A DNA stretch of 64,000 nt. It comes from a virus (lineage: Duplodnaviria > Caudoviricetes). Numbering within the stretch: position 1 is the first letter of the stretch; every line of letters begins with the position of its first letter. The translations under genes and the position numbers were made by a program. Shown here in pieces: positions 2,583 to 62,904 of the stretch. The stretch is from positions 25,799 to 89,798 of IMG/VR virus record IMGVR_UViG_3300035498_000745, one strand, 5' to 3'. The notes below the pieces were generated by a model, which worked only from the letters and a program-made list of their open reading frames with translations, had not been told where the DNA came from and ran no database searches.

Positions 2583-4103
2583 TCATTTTTTAAACACTGG
2601 CATACACATTACTTTCTTAACTTTGTACTTATCCCTTATAACAGCAGCTCTTTCTTGTATATCTATATCTGGCATTGCTACATCTCTACATGATTTAGCA
2701 TATGTAGAGAATACAGGTTTCTTAGCAGAATAGTATCTTTTAGTAAAATAGAATCCTTGATCTACTAAATCAAAATAGAAAGTATCATTAGCTCTACATC
2801 TACCAAGAGTTTGTCTTGCTAATACAGAAGACTTAAATGGTTCAGCTAAATTTATAGTACAACACAAGTCTGCTATATCTTGAGCAGCACCGCAAGATTT
2901 AGTTGTAGATAATATGATCTTCTTATACAAATTTAACTCTTTAGTTTCTTTTTCAGATAAACTAGTATACACCCCCACGCTATTAACTAAAAATGGGAAA
3001 TCTTGAATTATGTGATCTCTAACTCTCATAATGCCTGCGTTGGTGCCTATATAAATAAGAATCTTGCCATTCATCGGTAAAACCATTTCTATTAATATAG
3101 TTACCATATCTAAAAACATAGGTCTATTTACTATATAATCAACATATCTATTTCTATCAAATCCATAAGCATTCTTACATTTATTTATATCCATAGGTGA
3201 TGGGTGTGAATTAAAATGGAAAGCTACATAATTAACATGTGGATCAGTATCTTCATTAAATAAGACTATAGATGGAATATTTTTAAAATATAATTGATAG
3301 ATACTATTCTCATCTTCATTAGATCTTTCTGGTGTAGCGGTAAGATATATAGTCTTCTTTGTATTTGAATGGTAATCAATTTTTGACATGTTATCGAAAT
3401 ACAAATGAGCCTCATCAAATACTTTTAATGAGCATTTTAAATACTTAAAAAACTCATCTACTTTATCCCATCCATTCTTATCTCCATAAGATTTTATAGT
3501 AGAATGAGAAACTAAGAATATTTGATAATCTAATGGATTTCTACATTGTAATTTGGATATAGATCCTGCTCCAGAAACAGTAAATATCTGATTATCATTC
3601 AATGGAGTATACTCTAATATTCTAGCTCTCCATTGATCTAACCAATTTAATGAGCTAGTAATAATTATAGCTCTAGCTCCAGTAAAACATATTGCTCCTA
3701 CAGTGACAAATGTTTTACCAGATCCAGTTGATGAATTTACTGACAATTGGGATTTAGTTCTTGTATATATATATTTACCATCACCAATTAAGAACTTTAA
3801 TATCTCTACTTGTCTATCATCTTTAGTAAGATACTTTATAGGTATAGGTTCAGTATCCACATATGGATCACATTGTTTATCAACAATAGCATTGCAGCAA
3901 AACATATTCTCCAAATAACCAATATCTAATCCTCTTGGAACTATAAGTTTTCTTTTTTCATCATCATATTCAATAAATCGTATAAATGATGTATGTCTTA
4001 ATTTATCATATACTGAAAAACAATATTCTAACCTTGGGCAATCTCCCATGTCATAATTATTTATTTCTATTCTAGAATGTTTTAATACTACTTTATTTTG
4101 CAT
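2583..4103 (-). CDS. Superfamily 2 DExH helicase (UvsW / phiKZ gp75-like)
   Basis: Walker A STGSGKT, DEAH, motif III TATP, motif VI QTLGRCR; lies next to an RNAP beta' C-terminal subunit as in phiKZ-like phages. Confidence 0.9.
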   Translation of the reverse strand: MQNKVVLKHSRIEINNYDMGDCPRLEYCFSVYDKLRHTSFIRFIEYDDEKRKLIVPRGLDIGYLENMFCCNAIVDKQCDPYVDTEPIPIKYLTKDDRQVEILKFLIGDGKYIYTRTKSQLSVNSSTGSGKTFVTVGAICFTGARAIIITSSLNWLDQWRARILEYTPLNDNQIFTVSGAGSISKLQCRNPLDYQIFLVSHSTIKSYGDKNGWDKVDEFFKYLKCSLKVFDEAHLYFDNMSKIDYHSNTKKTIYLTATPERSNEDENSIYQLYFKNIPSIVLFNEDTDPHVNYVAFHFNSHPSPMDINKCKNAYGFDRNRYVDYIVNRPMFLDMVTILIEMVLPMNGKILIYIGTNAGIMRVRDHIIQDFPFLVNSVGVYTSLSEKETKELNLYKKIILSTTKSCGAAQDIADLCCTINLAEPFKSSVLARQTLGRCRANDTFYFDLVDQGFYFTKRYYSAKKPVFSTYAKSCRDVAMPDIDIQERAAVIRDKYKVKKVMCMPVFKK

Positions 4104-4161
4104 TATACCTCACCTCTCAGTATTAGTCATTATTATTAAGTCTGTATAGTGATAAAAAATA

Positions 4162-4193
4162 ATAAACTGTGGGAATTATATCCCACAGTTTAT
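4162..4193 (-). terminator. Intrinsic terminator hairpin
   Basis: ATAAACTGTGGGA-loop-TCCCACAGTTTAT, followed by a T-rich run on the minus strand. Confidence 0.75.
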
Positions 4194-4204
4194 CATCTGT
4201 TAAA

Positions 4205-6394
4205 TTATTTTGCCTCGTTTTTATCTACAATTTTAACCATATCAATGGTTTTAGCGTAATCTCTAATATTAACATCTTCTTCATCTACTAAAATATCTTC
4301 CTGCATATATACCTGTGGCTGTTCATGGAAGAATAGATCGAAGAATGATGGTGCGTTCTTAGTAAATGTTAATGGGTTATACAATACTTTATTGAGATCT
4401 TTATAAAGTAATGATACAATAACGCTAGGATTATTTGTAAGTGCTTGATTAAGTGTAAGAATCCTATACTGAGCATTAGGATCATTCCAATTTGGTTTCC
4501 TCAAAATGTCATCTTTGCTAACAATTTGATTAGCCAAAATAACCTCAAGATGAATAGCATCAACATCAAGATTTCCTTCAATTACTAAATCGACTATAGA
4601 CTGTAATGCTTCATCTTTAGTCATATTCCCAGTAATATCAGATTTGTTAAGTATATTGATAATACCATCCATTGTCTTGGAGATCTCACTGTTATTGATT
4701 TTGATATAAAATAATGGTTCATCCTGTAAAGAATCTAAAGGAATATTTACTTTATTATCATCATTCTTAGCTTTTCTTCTAATAATAGAATTAAGCTCGT
4801 TAGAGATATATAAAGACTCATCAGATTCAGAACCAAATTTTACCATATTACCATTAGGATATTTGATATAGAAATGAGTTATATACTCATTATAAGTAAT
4901 ACTGTCTTCAGCATCAATCTTATTTCCGTCATCATCATACTTAACAGTATCTTCTTCATCATTAACTAAGTTTACATCATCTGGATCTATAATCATTGTA
5001 TATTTTCTAAGATCTGGAATACTGTCTTCTAAGTCGCTTATAAGACTAATACTATTTATATCAATCTCAAATAACTGGTCGAATTCTTTATTCCACTTAG
5101 TAACAATAATTTTAGTTTCCAAAAGATGCTTAGCTGATAACAAAGTTTGTGTAAGCATTGATGATAAGATCTCAGCTGCAATCTTGCCGACATTGATGTC
5201 TCTATTAGTCCAATATAGATCACCATAACATTTTCTACAAATACCATGACCAGAAGATAAACTGGCACATGTCATTGGAGAGTGTAAGAAGATAGTCTTC
5301 CCTATGAGAGAAGTATCTTTATCATCTAAGATATGATCCATTCCAAAAGGATTATATCTGAAATTACGATTCTTAACCATGCTAAGATGTTTAGCCGTCT
5401 TTATCTCAAATCTGATAAAGTGTCTAGACATACACTGATATGTTTCTATTGGATTAAGTATGGTGTCTGTATTATTTAATCCAAGTAATCTAGCAATGTC
5501 TCCAGAGTTTCCTACATTGATTTTCGATAACTTCTGAGCAGTTCTTGCAGTTGATGATTCAATATAGAAAGCTACAGGTTCATTAACACCTCCATTGCTA
5601 AATGATTTATTTATAATATATGGGTATACAGTATCATATACTGATTTGGTTCCAATATTAATTCTAGACTCTTTATACTGTCTAGGATTGATTGCCTCGG
5701 ATGCTCTGAATGAATTCGTTAACCCATGCTCATAGCCAATATACTTTTTAGAATTCTTTATGATTTCAATAGTTCTATCTGCTATAGCCTGACCAGCATC
5801 CTTAACATCATTGATAGGTACATTTGCAAATGATGTATGCATAAGATCATAATACTCAGGACATGCTTCCATGAGAGCAATATCATCTTCATTATTAATA
5901 GTATTTGCTAAATAATATGCAAACGGCTCTATCTGTGAGAAGTTCCAAGTTCCATCAGCAATAATATTATTAAGTTCATAATTGCCGATACTAATCTTGT
6001 TATCTATTGTAAGCACATAATCATCTATAAACTGTTTGATATTTTTGCGCTTTAATTCAGGAGACCAAAATATATTACGTGGACTGATCTTGCCATTGGT
6101 TTTTAAGATCATACTCCACATGAATAAACAATACCAATAATCTATGAATGATAATTCGCACCAAACATCTCCTCCCCAAGATATAGTAATCTTGGTATCA
6201 TGTACATAGTCTGTTTCGATACCATCTTTTAATATATTGCTTATACCAATAATATGGTCATCAATATTAGATGCAGTAATATCATTTGGCACCATAATTG
6301 CAATGGCGCTATATTTACTTACAGCATCTCCGTAAATAAAATAGTTCTTATAATTTTGTAGTGGCTTATACTCCACTATATTAGTTTCTGCCAT
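4205..6394 (-). CDS. Multisubunit phage RNA polymerase beta' C-terminal subunit (non-virion type)
   Basis: Bridge-helix-like NVGNSGDIARLL, Zn-binding SPMTC...GICRKCYG, trigger-loop-like TQTLLSAKH, and HLEVIL. Confidence 0.85.
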   Translation of the reverse strand: MAETNIVEYKPLQNYKNYFIYGDAVSKYSAIAIMVPNDITASNIDDHIIGISNILKDGIETDYVHDTKITISWGGDVWCELSFIDYWYCLFMWSMILKTNGKISPRNIFWSPELKRKNIKQFIDDYVLTIDNKISIGNYELNNIIADGTWNFSQIEPFAYYLANTINNEDDIALMEACPEYYDLMHTSFANVPINDVKDAGQAIADRTIEIIKNSKKYIGYEHGLTNSFRASEAINPRQYKESRINIGTKSVYDTVYPYIINKSFSNGGVNEPVAFYIESSTARTAQKLSKINVGNSGDIARLLGLNNTDTILNPIETYQCMSRHFIRFEIKTAKHLSMVKNRNFRYNPFGMDHILDDKDTSLIGKTIFLHSPMTCASLSSGHGICRKCYGDLYWTNRDINVGKIAAEILSSMLTQTLLSAKHLLETKIIVTKWNKEFDQLFEIDINSISLISDLEDSIPDLRKYTMIIDPDDVNLVNDEEDTVKYDDDGNKIDAEDSITYNEYITHFYIKYPNGNMVKFGSESDESLYISNELNSIIRRKAKNDDNKVNIPLDSLQDEPLFYIKINNSEISKTMDGIINILNKSDITGNMTKDEALQSIVDLVIEGNLDVDAIHLEVILANQIVSKDDILRKPNWNDPNAQYRILTLNQALTNNPSVIVSLLYKDLNKVLYNPLTFTKNAPSFFDLFFHEQPQVYMQEDILVDEEDVNIRDYAKTIDMVKIVDKNEAK

Positions 6395-7520: not shown

Positions 7521-7522
7521 GA

Positions 7523-9349: not shown

Positions 9350-12300
9350 ATGGAAATACAAACAGATAGTATTAACCTAAAACCAATCCAGGAGTATCGT
9401 CAAATAATGATTGATGGTTTAAGACATTCATTTCCGGGATTGAATGTGGAAGAATTATCTAAAGCAATTGATTGGTCTATTAGTAATAGATTATATAATG
9501 GGCCAGCAGTCTTAGATAATAATTACACTAAGCAAAAAGCAAATGGAACGGTTCTAGATATATTACGTTATATAGAAAGACTAGAACCAATAAAGACATC
9601 TAGTGGGGTATTATTTAAACAAAGCAAAGAAGCAGATAATCCATTTGATAGAATGATAGCTGGATTTCTAGAGAAGCGAGGTCAATATAAGGATAAAATG
9701 TTTAAATACCCCAAAGGTAGTTATGAATTCGCTAAGTATAATCTATTTCAAATACTTGAGAAAAAGAATGCTAATGCTTGTTATGGATGCTTAGGAGCTC
9801 CATCATCAATGTATTATAATATATACGTAGCGGAAGCAGTAACAAGACAGGGAAGATCATATATATCTTGTAGTATTACTCTATTTGAATCATTGCTTGC
9901 TAATAATGTGAAGTTTAATAACTTAGATGAAATTATCACATTCATTAATAATGTGGAGCATGAGAAACCAAATAGAAAGTGTTTAGATAGTGCTATACTT
10001 GATATGGATATTACTGTAAATGAATGTTTCTATAAAGTAATGACTACTGTAGATCCTACAATATGGATTCCTACAGAAAAAGAGATGAGTCTTGTATATG
10101 AATATATTAGAGGATTATCTCAAGAAGATATAAACAGAGTATATTATAAGAATAACTTATATACGTTCTGTGATCTACCAATTGTTTCAGATCTTATCAT
10201 TAAGATTCTATCTAAACTTGGAGGACCAACTCAGTTTGAATCTGATGACCCTAATAGTAAGATAGTAAATAACTTATTCATGAATCCTAATAAACCACCA
10301 AAAGCAATTAAGGAAGATCTTGATATATTCGTAGATATGATTAAGGAGTATGTATATTATCCACACTTTTATATAGACAAATTAGATCGTATAGAATATA
10401 TGCAAAGAGATGTAGTTTGTCTTACTGATACAGACTCAACAATAGTATCATTTGATGCTTGGTATAGATTTATACTTGAAAAGGTATATAATTTAGATAT
10501 GCCTATAAAGCATGAAAAATTTGATATGGTGGAAATTATAAAAGCTGATGAATTTGGAGATCTTGATAAGAAGGTTATGTGTAAAATTGTAGATCCTAGG
10601 TTTGATTATGATTTCTATACAGATGAAGAAATAGAAACTCGAAGATATATAGAGCCTGCAAAAGTTGTGCCACAGGATATGCTTAAGTTTGGTATTATAA
10701 ATATAATAGCATATGCATGTAGCGCATTAGTAGTAGATTATCTTAGTGAGTATTCTAAACTTTCTGGTACTTATGTTGAAGGTAGGAAGTGCGCACTTGT
10801 GATAAATCTTTGTCACCTTATAGCAGTAATGCTGTGAGTAAAACTTTGTGAAATGCTGGAAAGTGCTAAAGCTCGAATGCCTATATGGAATCGAAAGATA
10901 GAAATAAGTTTCGAGATGGACTATGGTGAAATAAAAGCTTTGTATATTTTGAAGTAGGATATACAAGGTCCTAAGGTCTATTAACAATGTACGATCAGCA
11001 GATTGGATTGGATTGATTAAATAAATTAATAAAGGTGGTGATATTTTGCCAAAAAAGAAAAGAAAGCCTAGAACAACGCCTAGAATAGAACTAGATTTTA
11101 ATAAAGTATACTCTTCAAAAAGGGATGGAGACTATATACTTTTAGAAGAGGTCAAAATAGAAAATGATAGTAATAGGCATATATTAATAAAATTTCTGGA
11201 TACAGGCAATGAACAATTAGTACACCCATCAGAAATATACCATTGTATGATAAGGGATAGAAAGAAACATGGTATAGATTATGATAAAGTTTATAGTAGT
11301 AATAACTTTGGAGATTTTGTCATTATTAAAGACGCTGGAAGTAGAAAACAAGGGAATCATTCCCATAAATTAGTTAAAATAAAATTTCTTGACACCGGAA
11401 GTGTAAAAGTTGTAAGATTAGCTGATGCTTTGGTTGGTAATATAAGAGATGATTATAGACCAAATGTAGCCGGAGTAGGTTGTATAGGAAATGCTTCTAG
11501 TTATCATCCAGCATATAATGTATGGAATAGCATGTTGCAGAGATGTTATTGTAAAACTGATGCTAATTATGTAAGATATGGTGCTAAGGGAATTACAGTA
11601 TGCGAAAGATGGCATTGTTTTGAATATTTCTTAGAAGATTTACCATACATTGATGGTTATAATAATTGGTTAAATAATCCTGAATTATACCAATTAGATA
11701 AGGATTACAAACAACAAGGAATTCCTTATAATAAAAAAATATATTCTTTAAAAACTTGCTGTTTTATTGAAGACTATAATAATGTAGCATTAGCGACAAA
11801 ATCAAAAAATAAATATATTGGTGTTACTAAATTAATAAATGGGTATAATTCCAATATTACAGTTTGTGGAATAAATTATAATTTAGGTAGCTTCATTAAT
11901 AAAGATGATGCAGCAGCTGCATATAATAATGCAGCAAATTACTTACGTAATAATAATTTAGTATTAAATGATGTACCATACGTTGATCCAGAAATTTTAG
12001 ATACAAGAAAAATACGACACATAAATATGTGCAGAATAGTATAATAAACCCAAATAATCAATCCAATTTAATCCCAACGACTATCCCCATATGGGCTGTG
12101 AAATTCAGCAACAGGAGTAGGGCCTATGAAATTTATAGGTTGGTGAAAATCCATTAAATCCAAGCGCAAAGCATCCTAATAGGTAAAGCTAAGGATGAAG
12201 ATATAGTCTACGCTCTTAGAGAAATACTAAGGTAAATTCCTCAGCCTACACAAACTGTAAGCTGACGAATGTTCAGGGAAGAATGAATACTACTTCAGTA

Positions 12301-13834: not shown

Positions 13835-16800
13835 ATGGCTTATGGTAATGTAATAACACCATCATATGTAGTTAATTATCATCAAGGTCAAATGGTACAG
13901 CAAAGAGCAGCTCCCAAACAAAGACCTCAGCCACAACCTATAAGGACTGTATATAGTCAAAAGACAACTAAGAACAAAAGCTTCTTAGATATGCATCATT
14001 ATCTTAAATCCATTGGTGTAAATAATAATGAATTTATGCTTGCCTTATTAGATCCTGACTTAGATGGAATTGACCCTTATGATCCAAATTTAAATGCCTA
14101 TTACAAACAGAAAATATTAAGAGAATGCATATGCAATTATTGGTATTTCCTCAGAGAGATAGTCAAATTACCATCATCAGGTGCTAAACCTATGCGTTTT
14201 AAACTAGATCGTGGTAATTTAGCTTATAATTTTTGTGCATCTCTTAATATGAATATATTTCTTGAAGAGCCTCGGCTAATAAAATAACCCATCTTATATA
14301 GAAATATATAGGATGAATCTCTTTTAATTTGCTGGGAAGTGCTAAAGCCATTTAGCCTATTAATAGGAGACGAAAGTCAGAAATAAGTAAATGGATGAGC
14401 TATGCTGAGAAAAAGCTAATTTATAATTGGTGCTAAGGCTTGATAACAATGTGCAATCAGCGTCTAAGATTTATTAATTATACTATATAATTTTAATCTT
14501 GATAAAGATTATCTTCAACAAGATCTTTATATTGGAGATAGAGTATATTCAAAAGAAACATGTGTTTGGTTAGATAGATCTACAAATGGTAAACTTGCAA
14601 CAAAAACATTTAATGATGAATTAGATTATGTAGATAAATCTGGGAATTTAAAGAAAGTGACTATGGTTAGTATAATTAATAAATAAAGTTCAACGACTAT
14701 CCCTCGGATGCGGCTCTTAAAATAATGCATCAATAGGAGTAGGGCTCAAGTGAGCGGGTGAGATCCCCTTAAATCGAAATGGAGAGTTACCTTAAATGGT
14801 AAAGATATAGTCTCGACACTTGGAGAAAGACCAAGGAAGTTCATAAGAGAACTGCATAGATTAACGACCTATGTGAAGACACCGAGAGAGGTAAGACAAC
14901 ATCTGTTGCTATAAGGCATTTATATTTATATAATTTTGGTACTACTAATTCTAAAATGGCTTTCCTCCATAAGAATATGGATGGTTCTAAGGATAACTTA
15001 GCAACAATGAAAACTATTAGAGATTTATTACCTCAATATTTGGTTCTTAAAGAAAGGATTACACCAGATGGCAAAGTAGATAAAGGTAAAGATAATACTA
15101 CAGAAATTGTAAATCCATTTAACAATAACCATATTAAAGCATTTGCTTCTGCTACAAATAAAGCAAAAGCAGCATCATTATTACGTGGTAAAGATTTGCC
15201 CTATACTATGGTGACATAGTGTAGAATGGCTATTAACGCTGGGAAGTGCTAAGGCTCTCTTGCCTATTATATAGGAGACGAAAGTCAGAAATAAATAGAG
15301 AGATGGGCTATGCTGAAATAAAAGCCAATTATTTATAATTGGTGCTAAGGTCTATTAACAATGTGTAATCAGCATCTAATCTTAATATATTTAACCAAAT
15401 ACAAGTAATTAAATATTTTTTATAATAAAGGAGGATATTTAATATGGTGGTAGAAGTAGGGGGAATTTATAAATCTAAAAAATGTGGAGAATATGAAATT
15501 TTATGTAGAAACGATCAAGAATCATATAACAAATTTAGAACATGCTATGATATAAAATTCTTAAAGACTAAATATGTTACTACAGTAAGAGTCGATCAAA
15601 TAAATACTGGCAGTATTAAGGATCCATATTTTCCATCAGTATGTGGAATTGGTTATTTGGGTGAGCCTAAAAATGAGTATAGAGATCCATATATTTATAA
15701 TAGATGGAATAATATGATAAATAACTGTTATAATGATAAATATCGTAATTATAGTTTACATGGAGCTTTAGGAATTACAGTATGCAAAAGATGGCATTGT
15801 TATGCTAATTTTGCAGAAGATATAGAATCATTACCTGGGTATGATGATATGATAAATAATCCTAAAAAAAGATATAGACTAGTAATAGTACAACAAAATA
15901 CTCCTGAAAATCAAAAAATATATTCTCCAGAAACATGTATTCTTATTAATCAATAATGCTTGGTTAAAAATATTTGATTAGTTCAACGACTATCCCCATA
16001 TGGGCTGTGAAATTCAGCAACAGGAGTAGGGCTCAAGTGAGTAGGTGAGAACCCTTTAAATCAAAAAATAGCCTACCTCTTATATAAGAGGTAAAGATAT
16101 AGTCTCAACTCTTAGAGAAATACTAAGGAAGTTCATAAGAGAACTGCGGGAATTAACGACTCTCGTGAAGACAATTGAAATCATTGACTTTGATGTGGTT
16201 TGATGAGTATGGATTCCTACCATATAATGATATTATCTACATGAATGGTGCTCCTGCATATAAAACAGCATCTTCAATAGCTAAAGCAAATGGAGCTCCT
16301 TATGGTATAACTATAACAACGACTCCGGGCTTCCTCAGCACAGATGAAGGTAAGGAGGCATATGCCATGAAAGAGAGTGCTACTAAATTCTCTGAAACAT
16401 GGTATGATAAATCATATACTGAATTAATGGATATTATTAACGCTAATACTAAATCAGATTATGTATATATTAGATATACATATCAGCAGCTTGGATGTTC
16501 AGAAGAATGGTTTAGAGATGTATGTAGATTACTTAAGAACTCATGGCCTGATATTAGACGTGAGATCTTATTAGAGTGGGCTACAGGTGTTGAAAATTCT
16601 CCATTTAAAGAAGAAGACCTAGATACTATAGCAGGCTTAATAAGACAACCTATATCAGAGGTATACTTGTTAGGCAAATACAGATTTGAAACTTATCTTC
16701 AAGCAGATACTAGAACTTATCCTGCAATTATAGGTGTCGATGTTGCAGGTGGTTATAAGCAGGATAGTTCTACCATAACAGTTGTAGATTCACAAACAAC

Positions 16801-17779: not shown

Positions 17780-17875
17780 TATATAGGAGAGGTTTTATAC
17801 CTCTCCTAATATTTTTATTTTTATTTATAATTAGACAACTGTGTAAAAATTTATATAGAAAGAGAGGATAAGAAA

Positions 17876-18664: not shown

Positions 18665-18675
18665 AAATAAATTGT

Positions 18676-19743: not shown

Positions 19744-19758
19744 GGAGGTAATGTTACC

Positions 19759-20508: not shown

Positions 20509-20599
20509 ATTATTATTATTAATTACCCCTAGGTTATAATGCCTAGGGGGAACTTTATGCTTTGAACTTTCTAATAATATAAAGAGAGGAGATGATTAT

Positions 20600-21349: not shown

Positions 21350-21366
21350 TAGGAGGTTGTAATATT

Positions 21367-37964: not shown

Positions 37965-39767
37965 TTACTCGTTTAGATAGAACATAAGACCATCTCCAAA
38001 AAGATCGATTCCGTTAATATACTCTTCAGTTTCTACAACGTACTTTGGCATATCTAATAAAGATTTTGCTAATGATACGCACTCTCTTAATACATCATTT
38101 GTCTTCCTTGTAGTTGACAAATTATGATCATCTATGATTTTACACATAACTAATCGAGAATCAATAGCCTTATAAGTATCTATCAATTTAGTTATATCAT
38201 CTCTCCATGAACTGGGTTCTTTATACCGATCAAAATGTCCATCATGCAATTCAGCATATGGACAAATAGTTCCAGATACTCCAGGATCAGAGTTTGATGA
38301 TGAATCTATATCTACTCTACCAAGATGGCTTGGTTGAATAGATCTATATGCTTCTGATACAGCATTGGATTTTTCTCCTATACCAGCTATGCCTTTATAA
38401 GTATATTTAAGAGCTATTAATGCATCTAAGTCATTTACACAACTCTTATAACTCACAAGGTTACATTTGATTATAGCATTAATCAAATACATTGGTGGTA
38501 TCTGTATAGCCTTCTTTATTGTATCAAGGTCAGCTTTATCTCCTTTATCAGATATACGATAAATTCCTGTAGCCAATCTATTAGCATATAATGAAGCTAT
38601 ATATTCAGCATATCTAACTTTCTTGGTAGATATATCCAAATTATCCTTCTGCCGTAAAGCATTGAACTCATAAATCATCCATCTAAGGATTCTATAAATA
38701 TCATCCTTATCTTCTGGATCTAATTTAAGGTCTTCTTTTGTCACGTCATCGTAGTTAAACTCTAAAGATTCCAATATAGACAATCCTTTATCATATATGG
38801 AATCAATATTTTTGTTAGTGAAATCAGCACCAAGAGCCTTAATATAAAGATCAGTGCCAAATAATTCACCATACTCAGCATCCTTCATAAAATTAATTAT
38901 TGTATATATGGTATACACAAATGATTGCATAATCTGGATGTTGTCATAGAGATACTTTGGAGCTACAATAAAATACTCTCTTATGGGGAATACATAATTC
39001 TGTTCCATATCTATATGGTCTGTAGAGTTTGCTATATTCACTCCGCTTATATGAAGAAAATTCATACACTCATAATACCCAAACTTAGCTAAGAGATATT
39101 TTATAAGTAATACAGATTTTCTAAATACATTAATTACAAAATAAGTACATGGTATAGCATATCCATGTACATCTTTAAGCTGTGTTGTATAGCGATATAC
39201 CCTTATTGGTGTGAATACAGTCTTGAATGTGATGGAATGTTTTTTACTATTCCTACTAGCACTATTGTTATAAGTACTAGCATCAACAATCTGATACATT
39301 GCAGAATAATACTTTCCATTCAATTTGAAATAAAAATCATCTACAATCTTCGGTATAGCAATATAAACAGTGATTTCATCATTAACCAAACCATCTTTCT
39401 TCTCTACAATCTGAATAAAATACTTAACTTTAATCAAATTAATATCAGAATCATTAAGGTTAATGTACTCATATACATTAACCTTTTTCTTCTTGCCATA
39501 CGATTTCTTTTTCGTATTTTCCGCTGGCTTCTTACCCTTGTTTATAATGAAGTCTTCATATTCCCAAAGGATATGATTAACGTCATCATAACTAGTAATT
39601 ACTTCAAAGTCTAAAACTTTGATTGTAAACGCCGAATCTCTTTCAATACTATATATAATATGCTTTAAAGCATTGATGATATCTTCGTCGTGCCTAACAA
39701 ATAAACTTCTGTTAAATTTTGGGCGAAACTTATCATTATAATCATGAATTAATTGCCTCTGATTCAT
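37965..39767 (-). CDS. Phage RNA polymerase beta N-terminal subunit (non-virion type)
   Basis: YFKLNGKYYSAMYQIVD and RSIQPSHLGRVD..SSNSDPGVSG correspond to beta FIING and RDVHPSHYGR...GxNxG regions. Confidence 0.85.
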   Translation of the reverse strand: MNQRQLIHDYNDKFRPKFNRSLFVRHDEDIINALKHIIYSIERDSAFTIKVLDFEVITSYDDVNHILWEYEDFIINKGKKPAENTKKKSYGKKKKVNVYEYINLNDSDINLIKVKYFIQIVEKKDGLVNDEITVYIAIPKIVDDFYFKLNGKYYSAMYQIVDASTYNNSASRNSKKHSITFKTVFTPIRVYRYTTQLKDVHGYAIPCTYFVINVFRKSVLLIKYLLAKFGYYECMNFLHISGVNIANSTDHIDMEQNYVFPIREYFIVAPKYLYDNIQIMQSFVYTIYTIINFMKDAEYGELFGTDLYIKALGADFTNKNIDSIYDKGLSILESLEFNYDDVTKEDLKLDPEDKDDIYRILRWMIYEFNALRQKDNLDISTKKVRYAEYIASLYANRLATGIYRISDKGDKADLDTIKKAIQIPPMYLINAIIKCNLVSYKSCVNDLDALIALKYTYKGIAGIGEKSNAVSEAYRSIQPSHLGRVDIDSSSNSDPGVSGTICPYAELHDGHFDRYKEPSSWRDDITKLIDTYKAIDSRLVMCKIIDDHNLSTTRKTNDVLRECVSLAKSLLDMPKYVVETEEYINGIDLFGDGLMFYLNE

Positions 39768-41294: not shown

Positions 41295-43595
41295 TTATAT
41301 TTTTATACTATTCTCTGAGAGGAATTCATCCACTGTATAAATCGGTATTCCCAAAGCCTTAGCTTTAGTTATCTTAGTAGAACTCTCATTCTTATCTTTG
41401 GCTATAAGAGCAGATATCTTGCTGGATACAGAGTATTCTCCAGCATCAAATCCATGCTGACGTAATAATGCTACAAGTTCAGCATCCCTGAATCCAGTGA
41501 ATGATACTCTTGGTAACTTTTCAGCACCTTTACTATCTACAATATTCAAATTGTCTATAGCTGCATTTAATTCATGATTATAGATAGCTCTACAATTAAT
41601 AATAGAATCAATAGTTCCAGGTCCAACTCCTTTAATGCCAGTTAATGCATTTATAAGTTGATCATCTGACATGGAGGCTATATCTTTAATTGTTAAATTT
41701 TCAAGAATGATTTTCCATTTCTCATCTGCCATTCCAGTGAAGCTGAATGCTGATAATATTTTAAAATCAGCAATTTTATCATTCTTAAGCTTATCTACAC
41801 ATGTTATGAATTTTACTGAATCATTTGGTCCTAAGACTGCTACATCATTAATACTTAAATTAATAAGCTCATAGAATGATTTAACACCAATTGCTCTTAT
41901 AGCTTCTTCTGAAAAATCTATAAATCCTAACTTGGATATCATATCAACCATTCTGAATACTGATCTCTCTGGGCAATATACATTAGGGCATTTTGCTGAT
42001 TTGCCAGAATCAGATATTACTATCTTAGATCCACAGAATGGGCAATACTCAATAAACTTCTCAGGCTCTCCCTGAATATTACGATTATACTCAGTATCAG
42101 GTTTTGTTACATACGTTATAACATCATTTCTATATTCAATATCAATCTGTTGACCTTTGATTAGATTAAGATCTACAAATCTCTGATATGAATGCAGTGT
42201 CTGTTTAGTATGGATTCCACCAATGAATTCACATGGTTTAAAATGAACCATTGGTATAACATCTCCTGACTTACCGATATTAAAAGTATACCCAAGGAAT
42301 ATTGTCCTTACATTCTTTGGATTAAATTTAATCGCCATAGAATACTTATTAACAGAATTTACTCTACCAAGTCTAGCAATCTTATCAGGATCTGTAAATG
42401 ATATTACCACACCATCTATCATATATGGTAAGATTTTCCTAATTATTTCTGCCGATTCAGTAAACTGTTTAACCTGAAACAGGATCTCATAATAATTGCC
42501 CTTGAAAAATACATGGCGATTACACTGCCCTGAGCTATAATAATGATTCAGAAACTTCAATTCTTCAGCTCTAGGCATATCTAAGCTTGTAGATAATGGT
42601 ATCAGAGTAATATAATCTACAAACTTATAGGCATCTGAGGATGAGAATAAACCTATAATTGCATTTCTACAATTTTTATATGACTTTCCTCTCTTTAATG
42701 CCAGTCTTTCCATATCACGTTTAAGCATTACTGCTTCAAACTTTATACCAAAGATTATATCATTCGGTACATCTTTAGCATATGGGAATTTATATCCTCC
42801 AAGTATTGGAGTTAAATCTGTTGCTACGTTATCAGCAGTATCTCCTCTTGATAATGCTGTTATAATTGTGTCTCCTCTTACTTCAGCTTCGACAGATACA
42901 CCATCATATTTAAGTTCTCCAACCATTTCAAAAGTCTCTTCAGGAGATATTACTCCAGATTCAAGACATTTATGAATGAAGTCTCTTTCAAATACTTTCA
43001 CAGATGTATCTTTATCGAAAACACCCTTATCTTTGGCATCATTATTTAATACAAATTTACATTTGTCAAGGGTGCCAACCAATTCAGGATATTTATGCTT
43101 CACATTTATAAGCCTTTTAGTTATCGGATCTCTAGTAATATAACACATTGTAACTGGTCTAAGACCATATGACATTGGGATATTCTGTTTATGAATATCT
43201 TCTACATACAGTTTAGATTTTTTCTCTTCATCTGTTACTACAGTACACATTACTTTCTTATCTTCAAACTCATTTTGAGCATGTTCCTCGATAAGTATAG
43301 GAGTTGCTCCAATTGCATAGTTAGGATTATAATACTTATACCTTTCTAATAACTGATCATATACTCCATCATCTAATGGTAGTACATCATCTGAGGTATC
43401 GTTATACATTATATTGCTAATCCTAAGGATAAGATCAGCAATTTCTTGCTGATCTGTATCCCAATCTTTAGTTTCAATTAATTTTACTGCATAGTCGCTA
43501 GAATACATACAGAAATCTACACTTCTAGCTTCTTTAGCATCGCCAATTCCTAAACTATTTAGAACTCGACGAAATACATTTTTAGGATCTATCAT
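41295..43595 (-). CDS. ligA: NAD-dependent DNA ligase
   Basis: ELKYDG adenylation motif, SRGD, DGVV, AIKF, C4 zinc finger, HhH repeats and C-terminal BRCT-like domain. Confidence 0.92.
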   Translation of the reverse strand: MIDPKNVFRRVLNSLGIGDAKEARSVDFCMYSSDYAVKLIETKDWDTDQQEIADLILRISNIMYNDTSDDVLPLDDGVYDQLLERYKYYNPNYAIGATPILIEEHAQNEFEDKKVMCTVVTDEEKKSKLYVEDIHKQNIPMSYGLRPVTMCYITRDPITKRLINVKHKYPELVGTLDKCKFVLNNDAKDKGVFDKDTSVKVFERDFIHKCLESGVISPEETFEMVGELKYDGVSVEAEVRGDTIITALSRGDTADNVATDLTPILGGYKFPYAKDVPNDIIFGIKFEAVMLKRDMERLALKRGKSYKNCRNAIIGLFSSSDAYKFVDYITLIPLSTSLDMPRAEELKFLNHYYSSGQCNRHVFFKGNYYEILFQVKQFTESAEIIRKILPYMIDGVVISFTDPDKIARLGRVNSVNKYSMAIKFNPKNVRTIFLGYTFNIGKSGDVIPMVHFKPCEFIGGIHTKQTLHSYQRFVDLNLIKGQQIDIEYRNDVITYVTKPDTEYNRNIQGEPEKFIEYCPFCGSKIVISDSGKSAKCPNVYCPERSVFRMVDMISKLGFIDFSEEAIRAIGVKSFYELINLSINDVAVLGPNDSVKFITCVDKLKNDKIADFKILSAFSFTGMADEKWKIILENLTIKDIASMSDDQLINALTGIKGVGPGTIDSIINCRAIYNHELNAAIDNLNIVDSKGAEKLPRVSFTGFRDAELVALLRQHGFDAGEYSVSSKISALIAKDKNESSTKITKAKALGIPIYTVDEFLSENSIKI

Positions 43596-45837
43596 CTTTT
43601 TTCACCTCTTTGCACATAACAAGATTAACCATAGGTTTGTCATTAGGTCTCTGCCTAGCTATATTATACTTAGATTCAAGCTCATCAAAATGACCCATAA
43701 CATCACGGATATTTGTCTTATAATGATGATCTTTATTTGGTACAGTTTTGCACATAACCAACTTAACCATCTGCTTCTTGACCTTTGGAACTTTCCTGAA
43801 TACTAATTCAAGTCCCATAGTCTTAAGCAAAGCATTGATAATCTCAGCATTTCTATTTTTAGAATTCTTATCCAATTTAATATCAATATGGTAAGGATCT
43901 CCAATTAATAACTGCTCGAATAATCTTCTTGCCTGTGGAGAACTAGAATATAACATGAGATTCATTACTACATACTGCATACCAACATGTACTTCATCAC
44001 AGCACTCCATTGCACCAAACATGATAGGAGTCTTTGTATATTTAGCTTCATACATTTTGTTGGCTTTGGATCTAGTATTAAGATTTTTTAAGTTGGTTGC
44101 TGCAAGAGATGTTACTGAAAATTTCTCCTCAGCATACTGCTTTAATCTATAATTATAGATCTGACCAGCTACCAGTCTTCTTCTGGTTTCGACATATCTT
44201 ACATTTCCATTAGAATCCGTTAAAGGTATTACTACCTTATATGGTCTAATGAATGGGAACTTCTTATATATTTCAGCTATAGTATCTATATTTACCGGCG
44301 TAGTAAACGCTGGTGTACTTAGAATAATCCTATCATCTTCAAACAGCATGTCTATAAACATCTTAGCCTGATTTTCATCATAATAGTCTATTCCACTTAA
44401 CTCAAATATAGCTAAGTCTTTATCCACTACAGATACAAAATCATACCAAATCTTACACATTTCTGAATATGTGCATACATGCATTCTGAAATAATCAATA
44501 ATTCTAGAACCAATAAAAGATAATGACTGCTCATGCAACTGACCAATGTTCTCTCTATTGATACATGTAGATTGATTTTTGATACATTCTACATGTTTAC
44601 CATTATCCAGAAGAGGCATCATTTCATCTGGTAAAATCTGAGATACTACTCCCTTGCCACCATGCCTATCAGCAAGCTTATCTCCAGGGTTCATAGGAAG
44701 TTTCTCTATTATGGTTACCTGCATAACTACATTGTTGAAATCATTATTCTTATAGAAGCGCTTACCATTAGCTATATCTCTGCATACTGAATATAATTTC
44801 TCTAACTGGTATGTCATTTTGCCGTTCATTGCTATCGGACCAATCTTAGCATTTACTTCTTCGGCAAAACGTTTCTTCTCTTTATAATAATAATACAACT
44901 GCTGGTTATAGTATGAATCGGCTAAAGCTTCAGGATTATTACATGCTACGTCTATATCTGCAACAATACCTTCAAATAAGATATTTCTATCAGATATCAT
45001 GCTCTCCCTTAATCTAGCCTGAGATAATGTATATAATACTGTATCATTTTCAATACGTCTAATGGAACAGAATATTCCATCAACAATCTCCTCTCCAATG
45101 TCAGGAAATGTCTTATACACATTATTATCTCCATACTTGTTTAAGAGTACATCATTATCATTAATTGCTATATCTGTAGTTTTCAATAATGATGTCTCAA
45201 GCTTTTTTGCTCCTGTCTCTGATAAGATAACAGAGTCTTCCATGTTCTGAGCGCAACTCAAATACATGGTTAACAAATTAACACCATTCATCTTATTACC
45301 ATACTCATCAAATCCGGTACTGGTTTTGATAATATCGTTTTCAGATATCCTATCTCCTTCAGCAAGACTATCAATAACTGAGTTATTCCAAAGATAGCCA
45401 TAACTTTCTGTATTATGATGATAGCTTACTCTCTCTATAACATCATATACACCAGTATCAATATTCTGGATGATAAGATAATAATGATGATTTGGTTTAA
45501 ATGAGAATTTATCAATCTTATATACAACTCTATAGTTAGCAGATGATGTATTATAAGATGATGAATTCTCTCCAAACTGGTTCTCATATCCAGTTTGTAT
45601 AGTTGCTACTTCTGCATGTGTAGGAACTAGAAAGTGTTCTGAGTGTATAGAACTCATTAAGGCTCTAGAGCCAGAATTTGCTGGCTTGAACGGTTGCATT
45701 AACGTTCTTCCAAGCAGCTTGTTGTAATCATCCAATCCAGCGATTGAATTTTCAATTTGTTTTTCAATATCGAAACTTGCCACTTTATTATTCCTCCTTG
45801 TAATATTTGTACGAGTAGAACAATAAGTTCTACTCAT
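43582..45837 (-). CDS. Phage RNA polymerase beta C-terminal subunit (non-virion type)
   Basis: NSGSRALM, NMEDSVILSE, GDKLADRHGGKGVVS, RENIGQ and FGAME. Confidence 0.92.
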   Translation of the reverse strand: MSRTYCSTRTNITRRNNKVASFDIEKQIENSIAGLDDYNKLLGRTLMQPFKPANSGSRALMSSIHSEHFLVPTHAEVATIQTGYENQFGENSSSYNTSSANYRVVYKIDKFSFKPNHHYYLIIQNIDTGVYDVIERVSYHHNTESYGYLWNNSVIDSLAEGDRISENDIIKTSTGFDEYGNKMNGVNLLTMYLSCAQNMEDSVILSETGAKKLETSLLKTTDIAINDNDVLLNKYGDNNVYKTFPDIGEEIVDGIFCSIRRIENDTVLYTLSQARLRESMISDRNILFEGIVADIDVACNNPEALADSYYNQQLYYYYKEKKRFAEEVNAKIGPIAMNGKMTYQLEKLYSVCRDIANGKRFYKNNDFNNVVMQVTIIEKLPMNPGDKLADRHGGKGVVSQILPDEMMPLLDNGKHVECIKNQSTCINRENIGQLHEQSLSFIGSRIIDYFRMHVCTYSEMCKIWYDFVSVVDKDLAIFELSGIDYYDENQAKMFIDMLFEDDRIILSTPAFTTPVNIDTIAEIYKKFPFIRPYKVVIPLTDSNGNVRYVETRRRLVAGQIYNYRLKQYAEEKFSVTSLAATNLKNLNTRSKANKMYEAKYTKTPIMFGAMECCDEVHVGMQYVVMNLMLYSSSPQARRLFEQLLIGDPYHIDIKLDKNSKNRNAEIINALLKTMGLELVFRKVPKVKKQMVKLVMCKTVPNKDHHYKTNIRDVMGHFDELESKYNIARQRPNDKPMVNLVMCKEVKKDDRS

Positions 45838-45857: not shown

Positions 45858-46061
45858 TTATTCTATAATTTTACACATGTGTTTATGCTCTTTGCATTTC
45901 TTATTAATGTATTCATCAATACTCTTTGTAGGAATCTTCCATACTGTACCAATTTTAAAGGCATCAATTTCACCACTAGTAAGTAAGGAGTAAGCTGTAT
46001 TTTTTCCAATACCAAGTGCAGCACACAAATCTTCTATTTCAATTACTGCTTTATTAGCCAT
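45858..46061 (-). CDS. Excisionase/MerR-like (HTH_17) DNA-binding protein, 67 aa
   Basis: IEDLCAALGIGKNTAYSLLTSGEIDAFKIGTVWKIP; start reassigned to MANKAV (RBS upstream, overlaps the previous stop). Confidence 0.85.
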   Translation of the reverse strand: MANKAVIEIEDLCAALGIGKNTAYSLLTSGEIDAFKIGTVWKIPTKSIDEYINKKCKEHKHMCKIIE

Positions 46062-46248
46062 CACCATCAACTCCTTCATCATCAGTGGTATCATCATCAT
46101 TTGTTTTATCTTTATGCTTATAATTTTCAATAAATAAAATAGCGAAAAATATAATCCACCATTTATTAAAAAAAAGTGCCAACCCAGCAAAGCATAATAA
46201 TACACAAAGATTATAAATTACTGTAAGCGTAAATAAATTTTTATTCAT
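46054..46248 (-). CDS. Small membrane protein with acidic tail
   Basis: 64 aa, two hydrophobic segments, overlaps both neighbours. Confidence 0.65.
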   Translation of the reverse strand: MNKNLFTLTVIYNLCVLLCFAGLALFFNKWWIIFFAILFIENYKHKDKTNDDDTTDDEGVDGDG

Positions 46249-54911: not shown

Positions 54912-55574
54912 TTATTTTTTTACTATTTTACACATGATTTTATTTACCATATTCTTATTCGAATTGATTTTAGAATTTTCATCGATCTCTACTAGATAAG
55001 GAATATAAATATCTTCATTATTTTCTTTATAATACAAATAATCATCAGCACTCAATGGTATTTCCTCTGCTGTTTCTCTTTCATATTCCTCTTTAGTATC
55101 ATAATCTCCAATATAATATTCATGATATTTTGTTTCTGTATTTAAAAGAAGTTCACTATCATGAATATAATAATGCTCCTGGAAACCTACCCCAGGTTCA
55201 GCAGATACTATCTCAATTTCAAGTTTCAATCTCTCAGCTTCAAGCATGATGTTTGTAGAATGCTCTAAATGAAGCTTAATGTTTTCGTCATTTAAATCAG
55301 CGTCCTCAGGTATGCAGTCACGGTAGTATGAGAATGGCCCATCCATCATACAGCAATAAATTGACCATGCGCACTCCACCTCCACTTCCATAGTCTTCAA
55401 AACGCCTTTTTGCTCACACCAGATGTCCCAGACATCAAAAATGCGGTAAAAGTGTTTTTGTTTGGAAAATTCCTTTGTGATGTAATTATAGTCAGCATCA
55501 AGTATTCTTCTGAACTCGTCTACGTTATCTTTATATCCTCTAAATACAATTCTAGCGTCACAATAATTAGGCAT
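54912..55574 (-). CDS. DUF1281/Api92-like (ferredoxin-like fold) phage protein
   Basis: N-terminal MPNYC, ECAWS and EPGVGF motifs. Confidence 0.65.
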   Translation of the reverse strand: MPNYCDARIVFRGYKDNVDEFRRILDADYNYITKEFSKQKHFYRIFDVWDIWCEQKGVLKTMEVEVECAWSIYCCMMDGPFSYYRDCIPEDADLNDENIKLHLEHSTNIMLEAERLKLEIEIVSAEPGVGFQEHYYIHDSELLLNTETKYHEYYIGDYDTKEEYERETAEEIPLSADDYLYYKENNEDIYIPYLVEIDENSKINSNKNMVNKIMCKIVKK

Positions 55575-59966: not shown

Positions 59967-59993
59967 AAAATAATAATCTTTATAAAAATAAGT

Positions 59994-60022
59994 TTACCCA
60001 TAGGGAAATTCCCTATGGGTAA
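59994..60022. terminator. Hairpin terminator between convergent genes
   Basis: TTACCCATAGGGAA-a-TTCCCTATGGGTAA. Confidence 0.75.
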
Positions 60023-60026
60023 TCTA

Positions 60027-62904
60027 TTATATAATATCTTCTTTTCTGATTTTACCTACATTCTTTAAGAATGCTGATTTATCACTCTGAATATCTTTTA
60101 TATAATTTAATTGCTTTTTCACATCATCTATTGTATACTGCTTAAGAACTCTACCTTCACCTGGAAGTATTGTAGAAATTCCTAATTGTTTTGGCGGCAT
60201 TTCCAGTGTCTTCACGAGAGTCGTTAATTCCCGCAGTTCTCTTATGAACTTCCTTGGTATTTCTCCAAGAGTTGAGACTATATCACATACCATTACTGGT
60301 ATCTCTTCCACTTCCATTTAAGGGATTCTCACCCACCTACTTAGGTCGTACTCCTATAGACGAATTTCACGTCCCGTATAGGGGATAGTCGTTGAGCTTA
60401 ACCTTGTTCAATTGCTTTTATAGTACACATTTGTTTAGGATTTATGTTATACTTTATAAGATCTTCAATAATAGTAAACGGGCCACATCTATTAGATTGA
60501 AGTATAGTTTTATTTTGTATTAAATTCTTTACATCCATTGCAACACCTTCTTTCAAAAATATTGCAATCAAACAAAGTGTTAGTCGCTGATCGCACATTG
60601 TAATAGATTTTAGGACTTAGAATACTGCCAATTATTCTAAGCTTTTATTTCACCATGATCCATCTCGGTACTTTGTTTCTATCTTTCGATTCCATATAGG
60701 CTCCCGAGCTTTAGCATTTCCCAGCTATTCAAAAGAGTTTTCATCACACTATTACTAGTATAATGGGGCAAAAGTCTACCCAATCCTTTATATCGTGTTA
60801 ACGATTTAGGTTCAAATGATGAGAAAGCAAGCATCAAATCATATATTGTTGATTTAACACCATTAATTATAAAGTATTCATCTGATCTATTGATAAGATT
60901 AATTAATGGTTGAGCATCAGCAAATAGTGTAGGGGTACAGAATACTGTCTGATATTTCGATCCTACTAAACCTTTGATCATAATTGTTCCGTTTTCGATA
61001 CTTACAGTTGTAAACTTATACTGTTTTTCTATAGCTTTCTTAAATTTCTTATAGTCTTTGAATAAATCCAAATTATATAAGATATATTCAAGAAGCCATG
61101 GATCAATAGAATAAGTACTAGATACATGATTCAAGTACTTTACATAATCCATGTTGTTATATAGAATCTTGGTAATCTCTTTCTTAGTAAGAATCTTACC
61201 TTTAGAAGATTGAATTTCATTATCTTTACAGAACAGATCTTGAACGTATTCAATATAATCTATATTATCTGTAAAGAATTTCATCCTATCTTTACCAAGA
61301 CTAATTCCGTACAATGGCGGATTAGCACAATATAATTTACCTTCTGTAATAGCGAAAGGGAAATAGATAAGAAACATCATCATTATTAATGATTCGATAT
61401 GTTTCCCATCAGCATCTGCATCTGTAGCAATAATTACTTTAGATGGTTTAAATTTCTCTGGATCGAAATTCTTCTGGTACGTATTATAACCCAAGATTTT
61501 CACTATACCAGCAATCTCTTGATTAGCGAAAAACTTCTTAGGTGGAGTTGTTGCTGCATTAAGAATCTTTCCTCTAATTGGAAATAATCCTTGAGTCTGT
61601 TTATCTCTATTATTCTCCATACCAGATATTGCTGAATCACCCTCACCAATGATCAACTCAAATGGTCCTCTGCCGTTAGGTTTCTTATATTTTGCTGGTA
61701 ATCCTGTAACTGCTGATGATTCATATTTATCAGACATCTTTATCTTTTCACCCTCAGATTTAATTCTGATTTCGCATATCTCTTTAAGATATTTAGAGAT
61801 CTTCTGTAAATCTGATGGATTAGATTTACCCCATTCTGTTAATGCTTTTAATGTTACTGAATATGCAAATGGTTTCATATCCTCTTTAGAGAATACATCT
61901 TTAGATTGACCTTGGAATAATCCCTTTATATGACAACAGGATACTACTCCTCTTAATCCTGTACGAATATCCTGTGCTGTCACTGTAAGTTTCTTATTAT
62001 TAGCAAGATATATCTTATTCATATAATCTCTAAAATATTTTACTACTGCATCTAAGAAACCATCTACATGAGTACCTGTTGAAGTTGGGCACATGTTTGC
62101 GAAGTTCATTATTTTAGCTTCGTCCATATTTTTAATATCATATGTCAATAATGCCTCTATCTTCATAGTACCATTATCTTCAGAAAAGTATATTGGTTCA
62201 AATACTTTCTTTTCACAAATAGAATCTATGAACTCATAAATACCTTTGGTATTCTTTATAGTAACTGCCTTCTTCTGGTTCATAGAATTTATCGCATTAA
62301 AACGAATGGTAGTACCAATCTTACACAGATTACATAATAACCATGTAAGATGATATAACTCTTCATCGGTTACTGTAATTTCACCCATCATATCTGATGG
62401 AGCGAAAAATGTCATAAGCCCATGTTTATTCTTTGGGCATTTTATCTTAGATTCTTTTTTAAGTCTGCCCTCCTCAAATTCTACTCTAGCTGCCTTACCA
62501 TCCATACGATAAGATTCTACTATAAAGAATTTAGATAAATAATTAGTTATAGTAGCACCCATACCATTTTTACCAGAAGAATAATCTCCTGAACCTTCAA
62601 TCTTATCATAATTAGATGAAGAATGAAGAACAGAAAATACTGGAGCAAGCATATCTAAATCGATGCCCTGACCATTATCTTCTATAATACAACCATGGTT
62701 TCTCATATCGTATGAAACGATAACGTTCTTATCAAGAGTATTACCCTTGATTATTTCGTCTAAAGAGTTTTGTAATATCTCTCTAAACATATTCTTATAT
62801 CCTGCGTTACCTAGAGCTCCGATATATACATCAGGCAGTTTTCTTACTGCCTCAATATCATCATCCAAAATCTGGATTTTCTTTTGTTGGTTTATTCCAT
62901 CCAT
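60027..62904 (-). CDS. gyrB: Type IIA topoisomerase subunit B; join(60778..62904,60027..60203), ~767 aa
   Basis: GHKL motifs EILQNSLDE, DNGQGI, GKNGMG; Toprim EGDSA, PIRGKILN, DADADG; splicing restores RYKGLG|EM. Confidence 0.93.
60204..60777 (-). mobile_element. Group I intron (574 nt) in gyrB
   Basis: P1 GGGT|AGA..TTTGCCC with U-G; conserved core; ends GAAGACACTG. Confidence 0.92.
60398..60538 (-). pseudogene. Internally deleted homing endonuclease remnant (46 aa) in the gyrB intron
   Basis: RBS plus MDVKNLIQNKTILQSNRCGPFTIIEDL (cf. YKSKKCGEYEIL of 15444..15956), fused in frame to a C-terminal NPKQMCTIKAIEQG*. Confidence 0.65.

Follow-up and report, generated by a model that had tools for sequence, protein, structure and literature searches.

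Proteins that act on nucleic acids in an uncultivated relative of jumbo phage AR9 share a short basic-aliphatic peptide motif, [KR]x-M-C-x-I-V, on their ends or in insertions. The motif was studied in a 64-kb stretch of DNA (hereafter, the window), which is the final 64 kb of an 89.8-kb virus record (IMG/VR record IMGVR_UViG_3300035498_000745; G+C content, 31%). The reading that we prefer, at a probability of roughly 0.55, is that the motif is a lineage-specific clamp-interacting peptide and that its partner is a clamp-like protein of 213 amino acids, predicted from an open reading frame (ORF) of the same window (27319..27960, minus strand). We judge it very likely that the motif functions in docking to one shared partner of some kind. 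A preliminary description of the window had quoted 16 such peptides and read them as a short linear motif bound by one phage hub, either (a) a clamp-binding peptide or (b) an address label for a replication compartment.

The non-virion RNA polymerase (RNAP) subunit beta-C of the 89.8-kb record (G000) shared 31% identity with its counterparts in Bacillus phages AR9 and PBS1 and was more distant from those of Staphylococcus, Listeria, and Yersinia jumbo phages; nearer relatives by this subunit (64 to 76% identity) were uncultivated IMG/VR contigs only. Two nearly whole relatives, G001 (259 kb, 96% complete) and G002 (239 kb), and two partial ones, G003 and G004, were compared with five cultivated outgroups (AR9, Staphylococcus SA1, Listeria LPJP1, AgentSmith, and phiR1-37). 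All gene calls were greedy ORF calls rather than curated annotation, and ORF functions were labeled via the AR9 homolog. As a background for motif counts, the 89 greedy ORFs called on the full 89.8-kb record were shuffled 2000 times within each protein. Single copies were scored with a 12-residue position-specific scoring matrix (PSSM), which was trained on these same genomes, so that its scores are relative only; at the threshold used, 49 motif copies were found where shuffles yielded 0.5.

All 16 quoted peptides were present in the frames and at the coordinates given for them. In principle, chance, composition, or a signal in the DNA itself (such as a promoter or a mobile-element scar) could mimic a peptide motif, as the genome is AT rich with strong codon bias, which makes the copies resemble each other in DNA, and as the pattern was defined post hoc, from the data. 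The counts argue otherwise. MC.[IV][IV] occurred 8 times (shuffle mean, 0.27), [VI]MC.[IVT][IVT] occurred 7 times (shuffle mean, 0.07), and the broader regular expression put forward in the preliminary description matched 17 times, versus 1.5 in shuffles; none of the 2000 shuffles reached 8, 7, or 17, respectively. The bare MC dipeptide was found 25 times (11.9 expected from the same shuffles). For MC.[IV][IV], there were 11 matches in G001 (0.54 expected), 13 in G002 (0.59 expected), 5 in G003 (0.30 expected), and 10 in G004 (0.14 expected), with 0 in the AR9 control (0.27 expected), and the motif was kept at orthologous positions across the five records. At the DNA level, the pattern ATGTGYnnnATHGT lay 22 times in frame 0 of the sense strand, never in frame 1 or 2, and once in antisense; the reversed pattern, used as a control in G001, was found 0 times, versus 12 for the true pattern. 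Synonymous choice at the cysteine codon mirrored genome usage (TGT:TGC, 25:11 in the motif versus 1659:867 genome wide). The claim that conservation acts at the protein level, made originally from codon differences between copies, is thus borne out by the restriction to frame 0 and the genome-like codon choice. A DNA-level signal is ruled out by the reading-frame and codon analyses together with the reversed-pattern control, and the whole explanation, to which we give almost no credence, is refuted as far as sequence analysis reaches. An intein, CaaX-like lipidation, an internal start codon, and a micro-ORF were considered from the sequences alone and rejected, given that the distance from the cysteine to the protein end varies, the bases upstream of the motif are not consistently Shine-Dalgarno-like, and the cysteine is replaceable.

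The 49 copies gave the consensus [KN][KR][VIE]-M-C-x-I-V-[DKP], in which the position after the cysteine is [KT..] and no residue is aromatic. Thirty-two of the 49 strong copies lay within 20 residues of a protein end, where 8.0 were expected (0 of 200,000 simulations reached 32). Among proteins with AR9 homologs, 25 of 26 copies fell outside the AR9-alignable span, with 20.5 expected inside it; the motif therefore sits on added segments, among them an N-terminal extension in the DNA ligase and an insertion in the catalytic half of the split B-family DNA polymerase (PolB). Alignment of orthologs, a check proposed in the preliminary description, gave the same picture: the motif was kept in uncultivated relatives as a conserved island in otherwise diverging tails, including those of HNH proteins only 28% identical overall, and AR9 lacked it. 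In some orthologs the cysteine was replaced by V, A, or I (always V in the beta'-C subunit of three genomes), which argues that the core packs hydrophobically rather than acting through cysteine chemistry. The position immediately before the core motif (position -1) drifted by lineage, with E or D in 10 of 19 copies in G001 versus 1 of 37 elsewhere (P = 2e-5 in a post hoc test) and, likewise post hoc, Q in 6 of 24 copies in G002 versus 0 of 32 elsewhere, as would be expected of many ligands that follow one receptor. Short, with a hydrophobic core, and placed at termini or insertions outside catalytic domains, the motif has the anatomy of known clamp-binding peptides. The proposal of a short linear motif read by one hub is partly supported: it fits the terminal position, the placement outside cores, the islands of conservation, the restriction to one clade, and the shared drift, and there is a candidate for the hub.

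The same anatomy might suit a recognition site for timed proteolysis, for a chaperone, or for a modifying enzyme, in which case early and middle proteins would carry it as a terminal degron or substrate tag. In favor of this, copies stand at protein ends, chiefly C termini, and on non-virion proteins only, the lineage encodes a GroEL-like protein, and AR9 is annotated with an ATP-dependent protease. Yet AR9 has both GroEL and protease genes and no motif, so that tag and machinery do not co-vary. Internal copies (the ligase extension and the PolB insertion) and N-terminal copies exist, tandem triplets are unusual for degrons, the replaceable cysteine argues against cysteine-directed modification, and the restriction to replisome and RNAP proteins would be left unexplained. 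We regard a tag of this kind as improbable.

Carriers found in at least two genomes were both PolB halves, DnaB, a superfamily 2 (SF2) helicase, the NAD-dependent DNA ligase, the non-virion RNAP subunits beta-N, beta-C (two copies), beta'-C, and fifth subunit (at its N terminus), a gp241-like protein, a small helix-turn-helix (HTH) protein, HNH endonucleases, and a number of small uncharacterized proteins. Within one genome, a single motif is thus common to the replicative polymerase and other proteins of DNA transactions, as with the clients of known clamps. The absence from virion proteins that had been reported earlier was confirmed: at a PSSM score of at least 12, 0 of 44 homologs of AR9 virion proteins carried a copy, versus 20 of 61 homologs of nucleic-acid enzymes (Fisher's exact test, P = 5e-6, with the classes set post hoc). 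The earlier caveat also held, in that topoisomerase II subunits A and B, UvsX, and SbcC/D were without the motif, and it was further missing from the virion RNAP, terminase, primase, Dda, RusA, GroEL, and the lysins. A self-associating beta-strand that zips carriers together, such as the halves of split enzymes, with no dedicated receptor, would fit the beta-branched core residues, the tandem copies, and the presence of the motif on both PolB halves and the split RNAP subunits. It is very improbable, as the tag also occurs on single-chain enzymes (helicases, ligase, HTH protein, and HNH endonucleases) and AR9, in which the same genes are split, has no motif. The motif is restricted to one clade: it is kept in the uncultivated relatives and missing from AR9 and the four other cultivated relatives. 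An ATGTGY-type DNA pattern was counted 12 times in G001 versus once each in SA1 and LPJP1, twice in AgentSmith, and 0 times in phiR1-37.

The candidate clamp begins at an ATG at position 27960, downstream of AAAGGAG, with its start inside the last codons of the gene for the PolB exonuclease half. An ESM Atlas model of the protein (predicted template-modeling [pTM] score, 0.70) matched clusters of PCNA, polymerase III beta, and Rad1 with template-modeling (TM) scores of 0.57 to 0.63 over 174 to 186 of its 213 residues. The Atlas model of the G001 ortholog (39% identical) gave TM scores of 0.62 to 0.68, with PCNA at 0.66 to 0.68, and additionally matched beta clamp and Rad9. Across both models, matches spanned 174 to 191 residues (approximately 85 to 90% of the length), and every named structural neighbor was a DNA clamp (PCNA, beta clamp, Rad9, or Rad1). 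On these predicted models of two orthologs, the fold is that of the DNA sliding clamp superfamily. A profile search placed the protein in a large unnamed family of 382 clusters at 50% identity (E <= 1e-3); the top PDB chain for a profile of 91 family sequences was PCNA, at an E value of 0.26. The isoelectric point (pI) of the candidate is 8.6 (family median, 7.0), and viral clamps without a loader are known, tend toward a raised pI, and may then bind DNA directly (PMC3201878). The ORF itself had no match in Pfam or PHROGs, a tblastn search of cultivated phages returned none, and the profile had no match in the five cultivated outgroups. No fused or longer homologs were found, which is weak evidence.

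At the syntenic position in AR9 lies gp130 (AR9 positions 107800-108393), whose annotation as RNase H has no domain evidence behind it; the gene that Pfam RNase_H matches in AR9 is a different one (206583-207074). As an equivalent of the clamp, gp130 was rejected, since hhalign showed no relation to the clamp family (probability, 0.15%).

The links between motif and clamp-like protein are circumstantial. At all nine clade loci (4 distinct sequences), a PolB exonuclease-half tail with motif repeats stands immediately upstream of the clamp gene, so that the gene adjoins the polymerase as clamp genes may be expected to do; each of the nine tails holds at least two copies scoring 12 or more and can be laid out as three repeats of period 12. 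G000, G001, G002, and G004 have both the clamp gene and the motif, and the five cultivated outgroups have neither; locus searches for more distant members of the clamp family, made to probe the co-occurrence independently, added no further case. Of the two options in the preliminary description, the clamp-binding peptide thus gains a candidate partner whose predicted fold, position beside a three-motif polymerase tail, and co-occurrence with the motif are all in its favor, with the binding itself conjectural.

The mechanism that we propose is as follows. The phage would encode its own highly diverged sliding-clamp-like protein, translated from a ribosome-binding site within the end of the PolB exonuclease-half gene, and this protein would form a ring or otherwise hold DNA. 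Proteins acting on replicating DNA would present one to three motif copies on flexible terminal extensions or insertions, the clients being both PolB halves, the DnaB and SF2 helicases, the NAD ligase, the non-virion RNAP subunits, the HTH factor, and homing endonucleases. The hydrophobic M-C-x-I-V core, in which V, A, or I rarely takes the cysteine position, would insert into a pocket of the clamp, and the carriers would be tethered to DNA as on a T4 gp45 or PCNA "toolbelt," which may couple late transcription to replication. By analogy, the carrier set resembles what a clamp toolbelt carries, namely polymerase, ligase, helicases, nucleases, and transcription proteins.

The closest parallel is phage T4, in which gp43, gp55, and gp33 end in interchangeable hydrophobic clamp motifs on divergent linkers (PMC2988020), and T4 ligase is reported to carry the same motif in an internal loop (dissociation constant, approximately 10 μM; PMC6212786). 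Both systems have a short hydrophobic motif on divergent flexible ends (or the ligase loop), common to DNA polymerase, ligase, and transcription proteins, and a clamp gene that adjoins the polymerase gene. T4 is known to link late transcription to replication, whereas here such a link is proposed from sequence only, as is clamp binding. They differ further in that the tagged transcription machinery here is the phage's own multisubunit RNAP, with four or five tagged subunits, compared with two small factors on the host enzyme in T4, and in that helicases and homing endonucleases are tagged here as well. Phage Mu offers another parallel: MuC is described as having clamp motifs at its N and C termini, with the clamp needed for late transcription (PMC12867686). 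An HNH endonuclease, ZRANB3, is reported to be recruited by PCNA (PMC5481773). PCNA and beta-clamp ligands more generally resemble the present system in placing one short, terminal motif (the PCNA-interacting peptide [PIP] box, the AlkB homolog 2 PCNA-interacting motif [APIM], or the beta-binding pentapeptide) on many unrelated DNA enzymes; the clamp-like protein here differs in being phage encoded and outside the Pfam PCNA, beta, and gp45 families.

In the Chimalliviridae, the Goslar-type protein Rhc is an RNase H fused to a clamp-derived domain that is incapable of forming a ring; it associates with the split polymerase and has a supporting role in late transcription (PMC13648698, a preprint). 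The phages that encode it are likewise jumbo phages in which the B-family polymerase is split (DNAP-N and DNAP-C) and the non-virion RNAP is of the multisubunit type. Here, in contrast, the clamp-like protein is a stand-alone product of 213 amino acids with RNase H in a separate gene, and the phiKZ homolog of Rhc has no sequence relation to it; the main text of PMC13648698 does not contain the word "motif," so that no shared peptide tag is described in it (supplements lie outside this scope).

Several observations weigh against a clamp as the partner. The assignment comes from two Atlas models of middling confidence (pTM, 0.64 to 0.70; predicted local distance difference test [pLDDT], 0.62 to 0.64). 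No curated clamp family was detected (PF00712 and PF02916, 0 of 3 records), and 0 of 91 sampled family members share any Pfam family. Comparison of the family by hhalign gave a probability of 1.2% against a 33-sequence gp45 alignment and 0.1% against the phiKZ RNase H-clamp-like ORF. No clamp-loader-type ATPase such as gp44/62 of T4 was found (PF13177, 0 of 3 records; PF00004, no match above the cutoff). The motif is also unlike known clamp ligands: the PIP box and the bacterial beta-binding pentapeptide have consensuses unlike this basic-aliphatic tag. It has no aromatic residue and differs likewise from the hydrophobic-acidic LDFLF type of T4 (PMC6212786). Primase, Dda, UvsX, and SbcCD are without the motif, and at least five copies per RNAP exceed the need of simple tethering. 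Finally, the co-occurrence contrasts one clade with outgroups and so amounts to about one evolutionary event, and many other genes are clade specific too.

The main alternative is a docking or targeting signal for another shared partner (a compartment or condensate, the phage tubulin, an import machine, or a host protein), with the clamp-like gene as a bystander. Docking-motif properties suit any single receptor, and the clade encodes a tubulin (Pfam Tubulin, 5e-11; PHROG PhuZ, 4e-5) that has no match in AR9. Each RNAP subunit and both polymerase halves bear their own copy, which suits sorting of separate subunits, and many clade-specific conserved proteins of unknown function are possible receptors. 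Chimallivirus nuclear import (Imp1/PicA) similarly selects replication and transcription proteins over virion and metabolic ones. It does so, however, through surface patches and not terminal signals, and AR9-like phages lack chimallin, according to a review (PMC13282480); the shell protein was also not found here (phrog_4795, 0 of 3 records; phiKZ positive control, 1.8e-232). Option (b), a label for a nucleus-like compartment, therefore gained no support and is weakened. A general address label would also be expected on topoisomerase II, UvsX, SbcCD, primase, and RusA, which work on the same DNA yet lack the motif, and no receptor candidate other than the clamp has any supporting feature. We consider a partner other than the clamp-like protein unlikely, though it is the alternative with the most in its favor. 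The tubulin/FtsZ-family gene itself (49293-50468, minus strand) is without the motif and has no accompanying chimallin; orthologs were present in G001 and G002, and tblastn gave no match in AR9.

Jumbo phages with multisubunit RNAPs have been described as being without a classical sliding clamp (PMC7824862 and PMC13648698), and how their split polymerases attain processivity and how late transcription relates to replication are only now being worked out. Neither the motif nor a clamp in AR9-like phages was described in the open-access papers and bioRxiv preprints searched (supplements outside the scope). If the clamp reading is true, one branch of multisubunit-RNAP jumbo phages would have a stand-alone clamp family, and a simple sequence rule would pick out the clamp clients of any genome in the clade, uncharacterized proteins among them. 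After T4 and Mu, it would also provide a second case in which a replication clamp recruits transcription machinery, here a viral multisubunit enzyme, and the tagging of several unrelated homing endonucleases would add a new example of how mobile elements exploit the replisome. A broader picture, which we offer tentatively at somewhat under even odds, is that the large unannotated clamp-like family (382 clusters) is the central hub of uncultivated AR9-related jumbo phages, read via [KR]x-M-C-x-I-V. The whole replisome, every late-RNAP subunit, and homing endonucleases would ride on this hub, late transcription would be replication coupled with a wholly viral RNAP, and selfish endonucleases would have acquired the tag.

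Of the 16 quoted peptides, 11 had PSSM scores of at least 13; four were weak (KFDMVEII, 5.5; KVTMVSII, 2.1; PKQMCTIK, 7.5; PVTMCYIT, 5.0) and are probably outside the motif system. The last exon or ORF of the PolB exonuclease half (27941..28399, minus strand) has a tail of tandem motifs with a period of 12, reading NRFMYHTV, NRVMCSIV (28034-28057), and NRNMCVRV (27998-28021). In G001 and G002, the motif tail is fused to a PolB exonuclease protein of 637 and 643 amino acids, respectively. The two exonuclease-half ORFs of the window, which are fused into one gene in G001 and G002, are separated by a gap of approximately 590 nucleotides (28400-28990, minus strand), and a weak match to a group I intron fell in this gap (RF00028, 28436-28685; 16.3 bits; E value, 0.16; under the gathering score). 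In the catalytic half (ORF 9350-10837, plus strand), KKVMCKIV (10568..10591; PSSM score, 29.8) stands in an insertion at residue 410, past the end of the AR9 alignment at residue 377, and is preceded by the weak copy KFDMVEII (10517-10540). This gene is apparently interrupted (9350-12995, plus strand), with ORF 9350-10837 followed by an HNH ORF (11046-12044) and then by ORF 12471-12995, a match to the final part of AR9 PolB; in G001 the gene is continuous (710 amino acids).

The HNH endonuclease between the PolB catalytic exons (ORF 11046-12044, plus strand; phrog_2081 HNH endonuclease, 1e-46) ends in HINMCRIV (12018..12041) at its extreme C terminus, and its orthologs, only 28% identical, still keep the motif. 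Further motif-bearing HNH-like proteins numbered three in G004 and two in G003. Those of G004 are encoded around the PolB catalytic exons (G004 13977-23577), are approximately 22 to 30% identical to the best-matching G001 protein, and have the motif within the last 5 to 9 residues of each. The SF2 helicase (ResIII/DEAD by Pfam; ORF 2583-4103, minus strand) bears KKVMCMPV (2595..2618) 7 residues from its C terminus, kept in G001 and G002. For the ligase (ORF 41295-43595, minus strand), KKVMCTVV (43236..43259) is found at residue 116 in the N-terminal extension, ahead of the AR9 alignment (from residue 157) and the Pfam domains (from residue 216), and is kept in four relatives. The weak PVTMCYIT of the same protein (43134-43157), conserved together with its flanks in all ligase orthologs (RPVxMC..R.PI.KRLIN), seems to belong to the ligase fold and not to be a tag copy.

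Among the non-virion RNAP subunits, all on the minus strand, beta-N (ORF 37965-39767) has RLVMCKII (38133..38156) in a C-terminal extension at residue 541, beyond the AR9 alignment (residues 107 to 526), and the motif is kept in G001 through G004. Beta-C (ORF 43582-45837), for which the AR9 alignment stops at residue 678 of 751, has KLVMCKTV and NLVMCKEV in its C-terminal tail (43603..43764); both copies are kept in orthologs, with C, A, I, or V at the cysteine position. Beta'-C (ORF 4205-6394) ends in the M-V variant TIDMVKIV (4226..4249; PSSM score, 10.6), kept as an M-V variant in all three orthologs; it reads IEMVKIV in G001 and G002, and the form in G004 is IEMCRIV. The fifth, promoter-specificity-like subunit is cut to 335 amino acids in G000 (10411-11418) and 351 in G002 (85693-86748), with similar odd C-terminal ends, and is 521 amino acids long in G001, which suggests another intron or split. 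A 242-amino-acid protein (40473-41201) with N-terminal likeness to the fifth subunit was set aside, as the likeness is not conserved in G001.

The small HTH_17 protein (ORF 45858-46205, minus strand; Pfam HTH_17, 2e-11) ends in HKHMCKII (45864..45887), and its orthologs, of 68 to 72 amino acids, terminate in the motif. The first approximately 45 residues of the 115-amino-acid ORF are hydrophobic and not conserved, and the true start is probably later than the first start codon. A 220-amino-acid protein of unknown function (ORF 54912-55574, minus strand) has NKIMCKIV at its C terminus (54921..54944; PSSM score, 28.8), kept in the G002 ortholog and present as a V variant in G001. Searches of Pfam and PHROGs with unexplained carriers and candidate hubs gave mostly no match. 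The weak KVTMVSII (14654..14677, plus strand) falls in a 72-amino-acid open frame whose first-start ORF has only 9 amino acids and is probably outside the system; the weak PKQMCTIK (60416..60439, minus strand) is in a 66-amino-acid ORF.

Two other gene arrangements were seen in the window. A CHAP and PG_binding_1 lysin without the motif (7733-8551, minus strand) is encoded between the RNAP beta'-C and PolB genes. The large terminase (13835-17779) is in at least two pieces (13835-14287 and 16175-17779, plus strand; both match AR9 terminase) with small ORFs between them, and AR9 terminase is likewise annotated as a join of five pieces.

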